Assembly: GCA_041736705.1 (NCBI GenBank)
Contig: JBGSTC010000028.1
Span: 20,768-84,767 of the forward strand
Direction of reading: 5' to 3'
Origin: Erysipelotrichaceae bacterium
GTDB lineage: Bacteria > Bacillota_I > Bacilli_A > Erysipelotrichales > Erysipelotrichaceae
Length of the DNA: 64,000 nucleotides
The position numbers and the translations under genes were made by a program. The notes beneath the pieces were generated by a model that had not been told where the DNA came from, did no database searches, and saw only the letters and a program-made list of their open reading frames with translations. Shown here in pieces: positions 53,790 through 64,000 of this stretch (the first letter of the stretch is position 1; each line of letters opens with the position of its first letter).

Positions 53790-53882
53790 GGGGAAGTACT
53801 CAAGAGGCCGAAGAGGTGCCCCTGCTAAGGGCATAGGTCGGGTTAAACTGGCGCGAGGGTTCAAATCCCTCCTTCCCCGCCA
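53790..53882 (+). tRNA. tRNA-Ser (anticodon GCT), class II with a long variable arm
   Basis: Manual fold: acceptor GGGGAAG/CTTCCCC, anticodon stem TGCCC/GGGCA with loop CTGCTAA, long extra arm, T-loop GGTTCAAATCC, genomically encoded CCA. Confidence 0.85.
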
Positions 53883-53895
53883 TTTTCAAAAACAT

Positions 53896-53971
53896 GGTCC
53901 AGTGGTGTAGTGGTTAACATGCCTCCCTGTCACGGAGGAGATCGCGGGTTCGATCCCCGTCTGGACCGCCA
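53896..53971 (+). tRNA. tRNA-Asp (anticodon GTC)
   Basis: Acceptor GGTCCAG/CTGGACC, anticodon loop CTGTCAC, T-loop GGTTCGATCC, encoded CCA. Confidence 0.85.
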
Positions 53972-53975
53972 TTTT

Positions 53976-54049
53976 GCAGGTGTAGTTCAATGGTAGAACG
54001 CGACCTTGCCAAGGTCGACACGGGGGTTCGATTCCCCTCACCTGCTCCA
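53976..54049 (+). tRNA. tRNA-Gly (anticodon GCC)
   Basis: Acceptor GCAGGTG/CACCTGC, anticodon stem-loop CGACC-TTGCCAA-GGTCG, T-loop GGTTCGATTCC, encoded CCA. Its 3' end (tcccctcacctgctcca) is repeated downstream at 57661 and 59261. Confidence 0.85.
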
Positions 54050-57424: not shown

Positions 57425-57677
57425 AAATCCCCTCACCAGTTAGTTTTAGTGTACCATAAATGAATTGAGTGATGTTTAACAGGAGAACACCAGGTACCCC
57501 TAATGACGGGTAAAACCATTCGTTTACTTTAGTCAAGATCCAGTTACTGACTATACAATTGACTATACAATACGTTACTAAATCCAATTGAAAAGAAGGA
57601 AACTAAAGGATTTGGGGGGATTTAGAGGGGATAATAAAGTTTGACACAAAAACTATTAAATCCCCTCACCTGCTCCA
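57425..57677 (+). repeat. About 253-bp direct repeat, copy A (right arm of island 1)
   Basis: Near-identical to 59025-59277, with about 6 mismatches. It begins with aaatcccctcacc and ends with aaatcccctcacctgctcca. Contains tandem 11-mer tgactatacaa x2 and ggatttggggggatttagagggg. Confidence 0.85.
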
Positions 57678-57939
57678 TATGCATTTTAAGCCCTGAATAA
57701 AGGCTTTTTTTTGTGCCTATCAGTTCCAAAATTAACCATTGCTTTTTAAGCGGTTTTTCATATATTATTATGTGAGTATTACCTTCACAAAGAGAAGGAT
57801 CAAAATGTTGTAAACAGGTTTATAAATGGGAAAGTAGAATAGCGAAGACATCAATTGTTGTTTTGATCGTAGATTAGCATCAAGAACCATTCAAACAAGA
57901 AAGATTGACACCAGTTTAAGGTGCAAAAGGGGAACAAAA

Positions 57940-58746
57940 TTGAATATTGAAGATATTTTGTCAGCCGGATATGAGATGAAAGCTGCTGAAGCGGGTAGTT
58001 GGAGAATATATGATGAAGAGAATCCCATACCTGGATATTTTGAATTTGATTGGCTAAGCAGCCGGTTTCCCGATTTATATCATGAATTTGCGATATCCAC
58101 CATTGGACTAATAAACAAACTACATACAATCATCGACTTCTCAGAAATGCATGTTTTGGATGTAGGAGCCGGGACTGGAAGATCCTCAATTGAATTATCG
58201 AAACGGGCGAAAAAGGTCGATAGTACAGATGTCTATCGTTCGGTGATCGATTTTGGGAAAAATGAAATACAAAGATTAGGTATTCATAATATTGAATACA
58301 CGTATGGTGATCGTGATAAGCTTCCTTTTGATGATAGTAGCTTCGATGCTGTGGTTTTTTCATGGGCTGAACCAAATTACATAGAAGCATATCGTGTACT
58401 GAAGAACAATGGATACATTATTCAAATGGCATCCATACCTGAAGCGATATGTGGCGAGATAACCGATGTTTTACATGGGACAAATAGTAATGATCAGAAA
58501 ATATTCCTCTCAAGTTATCCTGATGAATTTGAGCAAAGAGACAATACAGTCTTTTCAAGTATTCCACTTGTTGGTTTGGTTGATGTACATCGCTTCACTT
58601 ATTTGTCAAAGTATAAGTCAACTGAAGAATTGGCATCAATTGTAGGCCGTCTTTATGGACCTAAAGCAAAAGAATATTTTACAACTCGCAAACAAGATAC
58701 TTATGCATGGAGAAATGAAATACTAATCGGACAAGTTGTAAAATAA
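57940..58746 (+). CDS. Class I SAM-dependent methyltransferase (Methyltransf_11-like)
   Basis: SAM-binding motif I (VLDVGAGTGRSSIEL) and motif post-I (…KKVDSTDV…). TTG start with RBS aaagggga. Low GC. Confidence 0.7.
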   Translation: MNIEDILSAGYEMKAAEAGSWRIYDEENPIPGYFEFDWLSSRFPDLYHEFAISTIGLINKLHTIIDFSEMHVLDVGAGTGRSSIELSKRAKKVDSTDVYRSVIDFGKNEIQRLGIHNIEYTYGDRDKLPFDDSSFDAVVFSWAEPNYIEAYRVLKNNGYIIQMASIPEAICGEITDVLHGTNSNDQKIFLSSYPDEFEQRDNTVFSSIPLVGLVDVHRFTYLSKYKSTEELASIVGRLYGPKAKEYFTTRKQDTYAWRNEILIGQVVK

Positions 58747-59024: not shown

Positions 59025-59277
59025 AAATCCCCTCACCAGTTAGTTTTAGTGTACCATAAATGAATTGAGTGATGTTTAACAGGAGAACACCAGGTACCCC
59101 TAATGACGGGTAAAACCATTCGTTTACTTTAGTCAAGATCCAGTTACTGACTATGCAATTGACTATACAATACGTTATTAAATCCAATTGAAAAGAAGGA
59201 AACTAAAGGATTTGGGGGGGTTTAGAGGGGATTATAAAGTTTGACACAAAAACTATAAAATCCCCTCACCTGCTCCA
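59025..59277 (+). repeat. About 253-bp direct repeat, copy B (right arm of island 2)
   Basis: Exactly 1600 bp downstream of copy A. Same boundaries and internal motifs. Confidence 0.85.
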
Positions 59278-59288
59278 TCGCCAATCAA

Positions 59289-59316: not shown

Positions 59317-59389
59317 AATTCGTGGTAAAATTGGATCGTTCAGATTTAGCGATTTTATCATTAGAAAAAAATCACAGCGAAGGAGAAAA

Positions 59390-60190
59390 ATGAGCAAAAT
59401 TAAACTACATATCTTACCAGATGAAGACGATTTCGAAAGTGCCGAGGTCCATGTGTTCGCGACCGTCGAAGGAGACGAGTTCGAATTCTTGCTGGATACC
59501 GGTGCGGGGACAAGCAGTATCCGTAACAGCGAGTTCACGATGCATTATCCTGTGATGTATGTTAAAAAATCGGCAGGTGTATTCGCGCAACATGCAGATG
59601 ACTTGATCAAGATCCCGTCGTTCAAGTTGGGTCCGATCTTAAAAACCGGAGTCGAATTCTATCGGATCGACGGGGAAGTCGGCATGACGAACCTGATCGG
59701 GATGAACATCATGAAAGACTATGCCTTCTACTTCGACTTCAAAAACAACACGATGGAAATCAACCCGGATTCGACGCGTTATGCGAAAGACAGCCATGAA
59801 ATCATCCTGGATGAGAAATATCATCCCTATATCCCTGTGAAGTTCGACGATGAGGAAGTGCTGGCGGTATGGGATACCGGCGCAAGCATCACCGTGGTCG
59901 ACCATGGGTTCATCGCACTGCATACGTCCCATTTCAAACTCGTCGGCGAATCGACCGGAACGGATTCCACCGGTGAATCGATGCAGACGCCGCTCTATGA
60001 AATGAAGGGGATGAGCATCGACGGACATTTATTTCCAACGCATCATGTCGCAGGCGTCGACTTGTCGCTGATCAATTCGACGGTCGATACGAAGATGAAT
60101 CTGATCTTGGGGTATAGTACCTTACGCCATGCGGATTGGTGGTTCAATTTCCCAGGGAAGAAGTGGCGGATTACGAAGTTCAGAGGCTGA
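59390..60190 (+). CDS. Bilobed retropepsin-like aspartyl protease (two DTGA motifs in one chain)
   Basis: Motifs FLLDTGAGTSSI (lobe 1) and AVWDTGASITVVD (lobe 2), each in a roughly 120-aa retropepsin-like segment. RBS gaaggag. Confidence 0.65.
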   Translation: MSKIKLHILPDEDDFESAEVHVFATVEGDEFEFLLDTGAGTSSIRNSEFTMHYPVMYVKKSAGVFAQHADDLIKIPSFKLGPILKTGVEFYRIDGEVGMTNLIGMNIMKDYAFYFDFKNNTMEINPDSTRYAKDSHEIILDEKYHPYIPVKFDDEEVLAVWDTGASITVVDHGFIALHTSHFKLVGESTGTDSTGESMQTPLYEMKGMSIDGHLFPTHHVAGVDLSLINSTVDTKMNLILGYSTLRHADWWFNFPGKKWRITKFRG

Positions 60191-60207
60191 CAATCCAGTG
60201 ATAGATA

Positions 60208-60240
60208 CAAGCTCCCAAATAATCGGGAGCTTTATTATTT
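60208..60240 (+). terminator. Rho-independent terminator after the aspartyl protease gene
   Basis: Hairpin agctcccaaataatcgggagct followed by ttattattt. Confidence 0.7.
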
Positions 60241-60374
60241 ACTGTCATTCATACGAAGAGAGTGATAAAATACAAGTAAAGAAGAACGAAATCATTCACA
60301 ATATGCTTGCCACATCGTATGTACCGCCGCTAAAGGGAATCAGAAAGAAAACCTGAACCAAGATGGAGGAAACC

Positions 60375-61169
60375 ATGGGAAAGTCATCGCAAACCAGTCT
60401 GACGAGTGAGAAACGGGAGACGCTTTTGTCTTGGATCAAATCGATCGGATCATCCGGTGTCAAAGACATCAAGAAATCGATGCGGATCCTCTTAATCCAG
60501 CTGGCGATCTTCGCATCCTTTCAATTGATCTTTTGGTGGAATGTCAGTGCCAACATCATCCCGGCAGCCATACACGGTCCGATCGTTTTCTTGACGGCGA
60601 CGTATAACGACGTCATTCCGAAAACCCTGTACTGGGTGATTTTGTTTACCTTCGGCCGACGTTTGTTCAATAAGATCAAATCGATCGGATTCGCCAAAGC
60701 GATGGCGCCTGTACGTAACCTTGTCCCCGAACTGAAGTCCGCCTATGCCAGCCTGGGAGCCAAGGCGGTCTCGCTGGCTTGGTTTGGCGTGGGGGTTGGT
60801 CTAATCATCGCGAATAATTTCGCCTCGTACAGCCGCTTTAGCGGGGCGCGGAATAAGTTCGACAAGTACTTCATCGCGATTCTGATTTCCTTCACCATTT
60901 CCTATTTGCTTGGGGAAGGAAGGAAACATTGGATCTTCAAGTTCACACGGCTGCTTGTTTCCGATGTGACGCACGCCTTTCACATAAAGAATCATCATAC
61001 GGACAACCACACTTACGTCGCCTTGTCCGGATTCATCATCGGATTACTGGCGGACGCCCCTTTGATTCTGATGAAGAGCATGTATGGCGGTTATTACCTG
61101 GGTCTTGGATGCATCGCACTTGGGTTGATTCTTATTTTTTCGAAAGTGAATGCGAAGGTCCCGGGATGA
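60375..61169 (+). CDS. Polytopic membrane protein of unknown function (first gene of a coupled triad)
   Basis: Five to six predicted TM helices. RBS ggaggaa before the ATG at 60375. Stop overlaps the next start (ATGA). Confidence 0.6.
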   Translation: MGKSSQTSLTSEKRETLLSWIKSIGSSGVKDIKKSMRILLIQLAIFASFQLIFWWNVSANIIPAAIHGPIVFLTATYNDVIPKTLYWVILFTFGRRLFNKIKSIGFAKAMAPVRNLVPELKSAYASLGAKAVSLAWFGVGVGLIIANNFASYSRFSGARNKFDKYFIAILISFTISYLLGEGRKHWIFKFTRLLVSDVTHAFHIKNHHTDNHTYVALSGFIIGLLADAPLILMKSMYGGYYLGLGCIALGLILIFSKVNAKVPG

Positions 61170-62257
61170 TCCGACTCTACGACAAGAAATATCGTTATTA
61201 TGTATACTTCGATCCATTGACCGGTCAAGGGGCGAGAAGCAACGCTTACGATGAATACGGAAGGGATACCGGTGAAGACCCCTATCAGGCGAGTTTCCCC
61301 GAACTGCTGGATATCGGGATCATGGGCCATTGCGAGCATGGGAAAAGCGGACTCTGCCTTCAGTCCGGGGTGGAATGTTACCAAAACGGATTGGGGATCG
61401 AAGAGCCGAATATGCCGCTGGATCAGTTCAAACGACTGATCGACGAGTGTAAAGGCCGAACCTTCCAAGTCGCATTGGGTGGAAGGGGGGATCCCGACCA
61501 ACACGAAAACTTCGTCGAAATTCTGAAGTATGCCCACGCGAACGGCGTCGTTCCCAACTTCACGACTTCCGGCTACGGGCTGAAATCCGAGTTGATTCCA
61601 TACATCAAAGCCTATTGCGGCGCGGTTGCGGTGAGTTGGTATCGAAACGAATATACCCATAAAGCATTACGCATGTTAATCGACGCGGAGATCAAAACCA
61701 ACATCCACTTCGTGTTAAGCAAAGCCTCCATCGACGAAGCGATTGAGATGATCGAAGAGAATCGGATTCCAAAGGGTGTGAACCGCATCATCTTCCTTCT
61801 CCATAAGCCCGTCGGGCTTGGTTCCATCGCCAATGTCTTGGATGTGAAGGATGAACGTGTAAAACACTTCTTCAGTCTGATCGATCGTCCCGAAGTCGCC
61901 GATCGTTTGGGGTTTGATAGTTGTTGCGTCCCGGCGATTTTGAACTTCGCGAAGAACATCCATCCGATGTGCATCGAGGCCTGTGAAGCCGGTCGCTTCT
62001 CCGCCTACGTATCCCCGGATTTCGAATTGATCCCCTGTAGTTTCGAAAAGGATCCGAAATATGCCGTTTCCTTAACGAATTCGTCGATCGAAAAAGCCTG
62101 GAACAGTAAACCGTTCGAATCTTTCCGGAAACTTCAAGACGGGAAATGCATCGATTGCCCTTCCCGTACTTCCTGTTATGCCGGCTGCCCCATCGTTCCT
62201 AAAATCACGCTTTGTCCAACCGTAGATCCTCATCACGCAAGGGAGGTCGCACCATGA
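61166..62257 (+). CDS. Radical-SAM-like enzyme with a C-terminal SPASM domain and a non-canonical N-terminal Cys triad (CX7CX6C)
   Basis: GGE-type SAM motif (QVALGGRGDP) and a TTSGYG ribose motif. SPASM signature CIDCPSRTSCYAGCP (CX2CX5CX3C) plus upstream auxiliary Cys residues. Only candidate radical-SAM cluster is GHCEHGKSGLCLQSGVEC. Start at the internal ATG at 61166; the ORF-track start at 60929 overlaps the membrane gene. Confidence 0.6.
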   Translation: MIRLYDKKYRYYVYFDPLTGQGARSNAYDEYGRDTGEDPYQASFPELLDIGIMGHCEHGKSGLCLQSGVECYQNGLGIEEPNMPLDQFKRLIDECKGRTFQVALGGRGDPDQHENFVEILKYAHANGVVPNFTTSGYGLKSELIPYIKAYCGAVAVSWYRNEYTHKALRMLIDAEIKTNIHFVLSKASIDEAIEMIEENRIPKGVNRIIFLLHKPVGLGSIANVLDVKDERVKHFFSLIDRPEVADRLGFDSCCVPAILNFAKNIHPMCIEACEAGRFSAYVSPDFELIPCSFEKDPKYAVSLTNSSIEKAWNSKPFESFRKLQDGKCIDCPSRTSCYAGCPIVPKITLCPTVDPHHAREVAP

Positions 62258-63846
62258 AAATCAAAGCCGACTATGTCACCAATTCATCCAGCGAAGTGTT
62301 TGCGGTCGTTCTTCAAGACACGTTTGTCAGTGCCGCGCTCATCGCTTCCGCGGTATCCATCCTGCATGGCTTCAAGGTCGAACATGACCTGAAAAACATC
62401 AATGAACCGGTGGTCCTAAGTCTGATCGAAGATGCGCAAACGATTTCAAGAAGCATTGCGAAAGGCGTCGAAGAAGATGCGTTGCGACAAGAGGCGATGG
62501 TCAACGATGCCTATTATGTTTCCAAAACCACGCTGGATTCTAGCCGGTCGGTTTTGGAGCGTGAACTTGACGAGACGATGAAGACGGACGAGCTTGCGAA
62601 AGCGACCTATGGGGTCGAAAGCCAAGAATACCTGATGTTTATGAAAGACTGCGACGAGTACCAAGACTATCTCAACACGCAGCTCCAACAAGTCGATGCG
62701 CGTAAGAAAATCCTGGCGGATGAAAGTACGGCGTTCAACGCGAAACTCTCATCGATCAGCGAGGAAACCCGTACGATGCAAACCGAACTGATCGCCGTAA
62801 GGGAAGAAAAAGCGATGCTGGACGGGATTACGAAAGGATATCCGGAAGCAACCTATGACTTGGATCCAGTCCGGTTGAAACTGAGGGCTCTTGAAGAACG
62901 GGATCTTGAACTTAACGGGAAACTGAAGTCCGCTAATGCGAGTATCGAGTATCAGGCACAACGAAGGGATACGATCAAGGTCTCCGATGAGTCGATCCGT
63001 TTAGGGGACCAGTTGAAATCCAAGCAAGAGGAATTCGCGTCGGAAATGAAACGATTGGATACGGAGAAACGTAACCAATTGAAAGCCGAAACGCAGCGTC
63101 TGAAGGAGATCAAGTCCAATCTGGCGAAAGCCAAGGAAACCGGCGGCATCGATGAAACGAAGCAGGAGATCAATTTCTCGATGCAAGAGGGCGAAGGGTC
63201 GACGAACTTGATTCTGGAGGAATACAAGCAAAAGAGTCATGACCTCCAACTGAGAAGCGAAGAAGAAATGACACTACTGAGAAAGCAACAATTGAATCTC
63301 AATCGGCAGGATCTGACACGTAGCGCCATCGAAACATCGCAATATGGTACCGAATCCGCGATCGATGCCTTGCCGGATGTTTCGCAGGAATTCGGGATGA
63401 ACTTGAAGTTGATGTACAAGACATCCAAGGCATTGGCGGAAGGGATCAATGCGGGCAAAGAAGATCCAAAGCACGCGGCGAAACAAATCGCGAAGGGGAT
63501 CCTCAATGCGTCAAGTGAAGTGTTGAAAGACAAACTCGGATTCCTTCCATTCAGCGCCCACGCGGTAAACGCCCTCAACAACAGTCTGCAAAACGGATTG
63601 AACGCCTCGATCAAAGGGGAAAACGTACTCAAGGCGCTCTCCCAAGGATTGACGAAAGGTATCGCCGAAGCGGGATATGCCCAAGGGACGACGTTGATCA
63701 AGGAAGGTCTACCGCAAACCGACGGGAAGATCACTGAAGCGACGGACCAAACCGTTTCGACACTCCTCAACAACAACCCCCTCACGATGGATCTCTTCAA
63801 TCTACTGACCAAAGAGATCGGTGGCGATCGAATCGCGCAAGAATAG
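62254..63846 (+). CDS. Long coiled-coil protein of unknown function (third gene of the coupled triad)
   Basis: 530 aa, extended heptad-rich E/K/Q/L regions. Start ATG overlaps the rSAM stop (ATGA). RBS gggagg. Confidence 0.6.
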   Translation: MKIKADYVTNSSSEVFAVVLQDTFVSAALIASAVSILHGFKVEHDLKNINEPVVLSLIEDAQTISRSIAKGVEEDALRQEAMVNDAYYVSKTTLDSSRSVLERELDETMKTDELAKATYGVESQEYLMFMKDCDEYQDYLNTQLQQVDARKKILADESTAFNAKLSSISEETRTMQTELIAVREEKAMLDGITKGYPEATYDLDPVRLKLRALEERDLELNGKLKSANASIEYQAQRRDTIKVSDESIRLGDQLKSKQEEFASEMKRLDTEKRNQLKAETQRLKEIKSNLAKAKETGGIDETKQEINFSMQEGEGSTNLILEEYKQKSHDLQLRSEEEMTLLRKQQLNLNRQDLTRSAIETSQYGTESAIDALPDVSQEFGMNLKLMYKTSKALAEGINAGKEDPKHAAKQIAKGILNASSEVLKDKLGFLPFSAHAVNALNNSLQNGLNASIKGENVLKALSQGLTKGIAEAGYAQGTTLIKEGLPQTDGKITEATDQTVSTLLNNNPLTMDLFNLLTKEIGGDRIAQE

Positions 63847-64000
63847 AGACAGCCGGACGACTAAACTGTACCCTTTGTAAAGGACACAAAATAAAAGCAG
63901 GGGTAAGATCGTCGAAGTTGGCGATCTTTTTCATGTTTGAACGGTGATTTGCGATATTCTCATCGGAAGTAGTAGGATAGGACTCCTTCTTTCTGATAGA

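Follow-up and report, generated by a model that had tools for sequence, protein, structure and literature searches.

Most of what is known of radical S-adenosylmethionine (SAM) enzymes with a SPASM domain concerns the biosynthesis of peptide natural products and of a few protein cofactors. Among the closest described systems, the anaerobic sulfatase-maturating enzymes (anSME; e.g., anSMEcpe, AtsB) possess a CX3CX2C cluster motif and recognize (C/S)xPxR inside sulfatases, while the streptide and sactipeptide maturases (SuiB/StrB, SkfB, CteB) act on small leader-core precursors, usually via an RRE domain. Here, a 64,000-nucleotide stretch from an Erysipelotrichaceae bacterium (assembly GCA_041736705.1, contig JBGSTC010000028.1; hereafter the window) was analyzed with attention to three consecutive genes on its forward strand: g1 (60375-61169), encoding a polytopic membrane protein of 264 residues from an orphan family; g2 (61166-62257), encoding a 363-residue radical-SAM/SPASM-fold enzyme of an uncharacterized family; and g3 (62254-63846), encoding a 530-residue protein with an N-terminal tag, a hydrophobic anchor, a long coiled coil, and a Gly/Asn-rich C-terminal region. 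The reading favored here, with a probability of roughly two in three, is that g2 is a radical-SAM/SPASM maturase that modifies proteins and that its substrate, the full-length g3 product, is encoded in the same operon. That reading is carried by the fold and motifs of g2, by the nearly universal pairing of enzyme genes with adjacent tag genes, by selection on the tag at the protein level, and by the covariation of tag residue 6 with enzyme residue 177.

The tag comprises the first 16 residues of g3 (MKIKADYVTNSSSEVF, encoded at 62254-62301 on the forward strand) and is proposed to be where g2 recognizes and modifies its target. The same tag opens hundreds of otherwise unrelated proteins of bacteria and phages whose genes lie beside those of g2-family enzymes. 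The consensus derived from 91 distinct proteins was M1 K2 [IVFY] [RK] x D6 [FYH] V8 T9 N10 S11 S12 S13 [SET] [SV] [FY]16, with positions 2, 6, and 8-13 conserved at 98-100%; a short hydrophobic strand follows, and past approximately residue 21 conservation falls to zero. Tagged proteins range from 88 to 1062 residues, are mutually unrelated beyond the tag, and include TIR, BRCT, BspA-type leucine-rich repeat, PQQ-like beta-propeller, zinc-ribbon-like, and coiled-coil domains. The tag was not covered by any Pfam, NCBIfam, PADLOC, or annotated PHROG model when g1, g2, g3, and 18 tagged proteins were scanned.

Of 86 informative bacterial loci, 85 had a tag-bearing open reading frame (ORF) beside the gene for the g2 homolog (79 of 80 once duplicates were removed); two further loci that end at the enzyme gene were left out as uninformative, and the sole tag-negative locus contains an insertion sequence (IS) element. 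Asp6 was replaced by Gly or Thr in three of the 85 positive loci. Viral loci from IMG/VR showed the same adjacency in 74 of 80 cases, with as many as seven tagged ORFs standing in tandem. When viral contigs were searched in reverse using the back-translated tag pattern alone, 120 DNA pieces were recovered, 93 of which have a g2 homolog inside them or overlapping them, within a few kb. The nearly universal conserved unit is the enzyme plus its adjacent tagged protein, not the triad of g1, g2, and g3. The triad had been proposed as a unit in a preliminary description of this locus, and the same three genes do recur in the neighborhoods of three diverse homologs; however, g1-like and g3-like neighbors accompany the enzyme in only about a third of loci (approximately 31/83; 80 species-level genome loci surveyed), and the triad is one architecture among the loci.

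In order to locate the level at which the tag is conserved, 372 distinct segments of tag coding DNA were compared. Third codon positions were near saturation, and each Ser position used both the AGY and TCN codon families; because of these two features, selection is assigned to the peptide, and the tag is under selection as protein rather than as DNA or RNA. The only conserved element upstream of the tag ORFs was a Shine-Dalgarno sequence. A recombination site, a leader, or another cause acting on DNA or RNA was ruled out by the saturated synonymous sites.

Tag residue 6 covaries with residue 177 of the enzyme, which is Lys in g2 (codon at 61694-61696). Asp or Glu at tag position 6 pairs with Lys, Arg, or His at enzyme position 177 in 122 of 124 loci, while Gly or Thr at position 6 pairs with Thr177 in 29 of 29 loci drawn from five independent lineages. 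By parsimony on a neighbor-joining tree, each of the two characters changed approximately six times, and the changes coincided in five lineages; each Thr177 lineage is nearer to some Lys177 enzyme than to any other Thr177 lineage. Column 177 was the only enzyme column to covary with tag residue 6 across lineages. Other tag-enzyme covariation, at enzyme columns 22, 146, and 294, was confined to one clade and was not used. Since residues 6 and 177 switch together in five lineages, we infer that the enzyme binds the tag directly, and the alternation is the pattern expected of two residues in direct, salt-bridge-like contact.

The SPASM domain of g2 (61982-62215) scored 30 bits against Pfam PF13186 (cutoff 21.5) and 32.4 bits against TIGR04085 (cutoff 27). 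Assignment was based on the C-terminal seven-Cys motif (CX9-15GX4C...CX2CX5CX3C...C) together with a score above cutoff, and g2 has both: its core is C328x2C331x5C337x3C341, to which C273, C291, and C350 add the full set. The seven cysteines would be enough to hold two auxiliary [4Fe-4S] clusters. In 20 homologs of 53-69% identity, C56, C64, and C71 with the following Y72-Q73, the G105-G-R-G-D motif, and all seven SPASM cysteines are invariant. The SPASM signature CX2CX5CX3C given in the preliminary description was thereby confirmed, while its 'GGE-type' SAM motif needed correction: the actual sequence is GGRGDP (G105 to P110, 61478-61495), which occupies the GGE-homologous position as a putative variant of that SAM-binding motif, aligning with GG-GEP/GNP in relatives that have the canonical Cys motif.

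The structure model of g2 shows a partial (beta/alpha)6 TIM barrel, as in the radical SAM superfamily, preceded by an N-terminal three-stranded sheet that lacks helices, and its closest structural neighbors are peptide- and protein-modifying SPASM enzymes. No NCBIfam radical-SAM/SPASM equivalog model was matched above its curated cutoff, the best being TIGR04317 at 41 bits against 380, with every other model missed by more; the models covered included those for MftC, PqqE, NirJ, AhbD, the W-cofactor maturase, SCIFF, and GeoRSP. By this measure g2 falls in no characterized radical-SAM subfamily, an outcome that supports the preliminary description. Profile searches of the PDB returned for g2 only a marginal match to PqqE and spurious matches to PPR repeats, and returned nothing for g1 or g3. 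The sole PHROG match of g2 was phrog_7293, whose function is unknown. A general Pfam scan gave no PqqD/RRE match for g2 at E ≤ 1, no structure-based RRE search having been made.

The expanded loop for the radical-SAM [4Fe-4S] cluster (codons C56 to C71, 61331-61378) has the invariant spacing C56-x7-C64-x6-C71 followed by YQ, and CX3CX2C occurs nowhere in g2. In the model the triad lies in the beta1-alpha1 loop, between beta1 (residues 47-53) and alpha1 (residues 85-95). A superfamily search of 1.84 billion cluster representatives yielded approximately 400 clusters at E ≤ 1e-30, and the best 150 of these were compared for the cluster loop. Their spacings included CX3CX2C, CX4CX2C, CX5CX2C, CX5CX3C, CX7CX3C, and CX7CX6C, with the three cysteines aligned throughout and YQ almost always behind the third; a homolog from a T4-like Klebsiella phage, with CX7CX2C, fits the same graded series. 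Because the series leads back to CX3CX2C with Cys-for-Cys alignment, the CX7CX6C arrangement is, as judged from these sequences, a normal radical-SAM cluster loop at the same site, derived by expansion of both spacers. The triad had previously been described as non-canonical, and it is indeed present, invariant, and unaccompanied by CX3CX2C; it is nevertheless homologous to CX3CX2C and not a different site, and both the structure model and the alignment put it at the SAM-cluster position. Several g2 homologs (P0259, P0264, P0303, P0316, P0352) reach 500-800 residues because of an intein-like insertion within the conserved QxALGG SAM-motif region.

The two partners of g2 would form part of a membrane-associated subclass of loci. 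As described previously, g1 is polytopic and g3 is mostly coiled coil. The AlphaFold2 (AF2) model of g1 was all-helical with no convincing structural match, and scans of Pfam, NCBIfam, PADLOC, and PHROGs assigned g1 to no family. Its 148 homologs share the strongly conserved motifs FLTATYN, PKTxYWxIxFTFG, GLxxANNFASYSRFSGARNKxDKYF, DAPLI, and YGGY. Homologs of g1 were found only in loci whose tagged protein has a hydrophobic segment of approximately 20-25 residues directly after the tag, and every tagged protein from g1-bearing loci has this equivalent of g3 residues 17-41 (62302-62376); g1 was found in none of 80 viral loci. In some g3-like proteins the post-tag segment ends in a lipobox-like or AxA-like sequence. 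The segment of g3 in the window does not, and for this reason it is probably a membrane anchor. Homologs of g3 have four elements in common, namely the tag, the hydrophobic segment, the coiled coil, and a C-terminal region that is conserved and rich in Gly and Asn; g3 had no Pfam match, and no family was found for it in the NCBIfam and PHROGs scans. A fourth gene of approximately 316 codons, whose product has no Pfam match, lies directly 3' of the g3 homolog in 15 triad-type loci (e.g., L002 8536-9486 and L004 8597-9544) and is absent from the window and its closest relative.

For catalysis, the modified residue, the membrane topology, and the role of g1, we infer the following course of events. 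The enzyme would hold the first 16 residues of g3, partly via an Asp6-Lys177 salt bridge. A [4Fe-4S] cluster held by C56, C64, and C71 is predicted to cleave SAM, and the resulting radical is predicted to take a hydrogen within or beside the invariant T9-N10-S11-S12-S13, after which the two auxiliary SPASM clusters would finish an oxidation or a cross-link. Candidate reactions from SPASM chemistry include conversion of Ser to formylglycine, as by anSME, a C-C or ether cross-link between T9, N10, or the serines and the aromatics at positions 7 or 16, and a Lys2-to-aromatic link as in streptide; each of these, taken singly, is rather unlikely. Modification would occur in the cytoplasm, and the hydrophobic helix behind the tag would then anchor g3 in the membrane, with g1 serving as a partner or accessory only of those tagged proteins that are membrane-anchored.

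Several observations weigh against a modifying role for g2. Its score against Pfam Radical_SAM (PF04055) is below threshold (16.9 vs 29.5 bits), with a match to residues 71-151 only, and Lys177 immediately precedes a beta-strand in the model. Cleavage at the lipobox-like or AxA-like sites of some g3-like proteins, should it occur, would strip off the tag, and the mature protein would no longer carry the modification. Two relatives of g2 (P0295 and P0389) lack any Cys in the cluster loop while keeping the overall sequence ('pseudo-radical-SAM'), and because some members are without the triad, a non-catalytic binding role for the family is conceivable. The tag might accordingly be a docking or assembly handle that brings diverse proteins to the radical-SAM protein or relies on it as a chaperone, scaffold, or sorting receptor, the true substrate of the enzyme being a small molecule or encoded elsewhere. 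The 6/177 covariation is compatible with this, as it shows binding, not catalysis, and proves contact only; in addition, the tag of membrane-class proteins occupies the position of a signal-peptide n-region, and phage arrays of proteins with a common N-terminus somewhat resemble the T4 capsid-targeting sequences. This docking role is nonetheless judged unlikely, given that the best structural neighbors of g2 are peptide and protein maturases, that the cluster ligands are all invariant within the CX7CX6C clade, that the invariant polar TNSSS resembles a reaction site more than it does a docking strand, and that nothing else is conserved nearby as a possible substrate pathway.

A modification of tagged proteins by g2 could also serve anti-phage defense or counter-defense, switching toxic effectors such as those with TIR domains on or off. 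This alternative concerns the biological role and is compatible with, rather than exclusive of, the maturase-substrate reading. The TIR and BRCT carriers, the spread through large phages, and the inteins in homologs, which fit life on mobile elements, give a hint of phage-host conflict; moreover, the module is abundant in large phages, with tandem arrays of small tagged proteins, and the closest relative shares with the window only the block of protease and triad, not the surrounding DNA. Set against this, PADLOC gave no significant match (for g2 only pVip, E 0.006, 14 bits; for g3 a chance-level JetC, E 0.69, 5.6 bits; none for g1), most tagged proteins are missing a recognizable effector domain, and the triad-type (class-A) loci are without a nuclease, NADase, or sensor; a defensive role is improbable, somewhat more so than docking. 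Least probable by far is a classical system for a ribosomally made peptide with post-translational modification (RiPP), in which the substrate would be a short unannotated precursor near the operon and g1 and g3 would form an export/immunity pair. Most SPASM enzymes do mature small peptides, and a membrane protein beside the maturase is typical of RiPP export. However, the interval 60190-60375 holds terminator-like and promoter-like sites, conservation does not extend to any RRE/PqqD, protease, or ABC exporter, and the universal tag would be left unexplained. Small ORFs of 18-75 residues upstream of g1 or downstream of g3 were compared across 26 class-A loci, and none was conserved; the clusters that appeared were only N-terminal fragments of g1 or antisense shadows, and a hidden precursor peptide was rejected on this basis. 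The preliminary description had seen no obvious precursor, which holds for small ORFs, but it missed that g3 itself carries the family-wide tag.

The ATGA start/stop overlaps of g1/g2 (61166-61169) and g2/g3 (62254-62257) were confirmed from the ORF coordinates, in line with the translationally coupled three-gene unit described earlier. A second possible ATG for g1 lies at 60363; the start was taken as 60375 because a GGAGG ribosome-binding site matches this position and because the public gene call of a homolog 100% identical to g1 (P0130) begins at its equivalent. Consensus matches suggest a terminator-like hairpin of the preceding protease gene (60209-60232), a promoter-like site with a TG-extended -10 element 5' of g1 (60242-60271, forward strand), and a terminator-like hairpin with a T-run 3' of g3 (63905-63928, forward strand). 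Because the first hairpin ends the protease gene, the promoter-like site precedes g1, and the second hairpin follows g3, the three genes look like a self-contained operon.

The tRNA island and bilobed protease noted previously beside the operon were confirmed. A tRNA-Ser/Asp/Gly cluster lies at 53790-54049 and an AT-rich island at 54-59.3 kb (GC content 36-40%, against approximately 52% elsewhere in the window). Genes of the island encode a 681-residue multi-pass membrane protein (FtsX-like by eye), an ABC ATPase-like protein (by eye), and a class-I methyltransferase (57940-58746), the last flanked by a 254-nt direct repeat of 98% identity (57425-57678 and 59025-59278) that may mark a small inserted cassette or duplication. 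The two-lobed Asp protease (59390-60190) contains two Asp_protease_2 stretches. Protease and triad are syntenic only in the closest relative, Erysipelotrichaceae UBA12416 (L009 6214-10696), with 90% DNA identity over 59380-63861; there the block is followed by tRNA-Gly(CCC), resembling the tRNA-Gly region of the window (86% over 113 nt). Neither the protease nor the tRNA island is conserved with the enzyme outside this relative, and both were rejected as parts of the system.

Among viruses, tagged genes occupy more than one separate position on a few very large phage contigs, with several positions on each; on the 504-kb viral contig IMGVR_UViG_3300028886_000026 (L250, L214, L259), tagged ORFs occur at three sites more than 50 kb apart. 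In one phage locus (L102, 3708-5258 and 11265-12629), the enzyme gene and its array of seven tagged genes are flanked by a gene for an RNA-binding protein (phrog_850) and one for an RNA ligase (phrog_968), and because of these flanking genes the module is placed in a nucleic-acid-metabolism region, not among structural genes. A g2 homolog with approximately 30% identity and CX7CX2C is encoded by Klebsiella phage PMBT1 (L089 4929-6074) and by 171 further cultured phages, which are T4-like Slopekvirus and their relatives infecting Enterobacteriaceae; its annotations are hypothetical, Fe-S oxidoreductase, and radical SAM. In these cultured phages the enzyme gene has no tagged ORFs beside it, and given this, the low identity, and the CX7CX2C spacing, they are uninformative on the tag.

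Taken more broadly, these loci may represent an undescribed tagging system, widespread in Bacillota and large phages, in which hundreds of unrelated proteins share a portable N-terminal tag of 16 residues (MKIRxDFVTNSSSSSF-like) that singles them out, so that a dedicated CX7CX6C radical-SAM/SPASM enzyme can modify them covalently; the chances of this wider proposal are put at about even. The openly searchable literature yielded nothing on this enzyme family, on its Cys spacing, or on the tag, in keeping with the earlier statement that the arrangement was not recognized as a described system. If the proposal is true, protein maturation would gain a further mode, in which the cognate sequence of a radical-SAM/SPASM enzyme is portable across folds, bacteria, and large phages, and radical-SAM modification serves as a general 'handle' on whole proteins, as opposed to one peptide natural product or cofactor. 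It would also give a first handle on many unannotated proteins of gut and rumen Clostridia and phages. The series from CX3CX2C to CX7CX6C constitutes a natural experiment on how far a cluster loop can be stretched, and the Asp6/Lys177 swap would allow a clean specificity experiment. Should the chemistry yield an aldehyde or a defined cross-link, a 16-residue tag served by a single enzyme would be attractive for protein engineering.

Compared with the known systems, g2 differs from anSME in having CX7CX6C and in that its target would be a 16-residue tag at the extreme N-terminus of unrelated proteins; g2 scored 12.8 bits against the anSME model TIGR03942 (cutoff 349), the tag is without xPxR, and no sulfatase lies nearby. 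Unlike the streptide and sactipeptide systems, this one has no small precursor and no PqqD/RRE match in Pfam, and its tag contains neither Cys nor Trp; because there is no Cys, a sactionine would not be possible within the tag. The triceptide (three-residue cyclophane) maturases offer a lead only, as the aromatic F/Y/H7 followed by V8-T9 resembles their aromatic-X-X cross-link motif; triceptides differ, however, in being small RiPPs with repeated motifs, and no family model matched g2. A likeness may also be drawn to QhpD of quinohemoprotein amine dehydrogenase maturation, a SPASM radical-SAM enzyme that modifies a protein subunit, QhpC, encoded beside it, although QhpD has a single dedicated substrate, forms Cys-Asp/Glu thioethers, and uses no portable tag. 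The sortase/LPXTG, exosortase/PEP-CTERM, and T4 capsid-targeting systems appear similar in that one terminal sequence on many proteins is read by one dedicated partner, but their tags are processed by transpeptidases or proteases and not by radical-SAM enzymes. The VMAP-associated radical-SAM peptides are C-terminal FxSxx peptides and belong to a different system (PMC7159879). The category to which g2 and g3 would belong, a radical-SAM/SPASM maturase with its substrate, is known; what is new is that a portable tag stands at the N-terminus of full-length proteins otherwise unrelated to one another, together with the expanded cluster loop.

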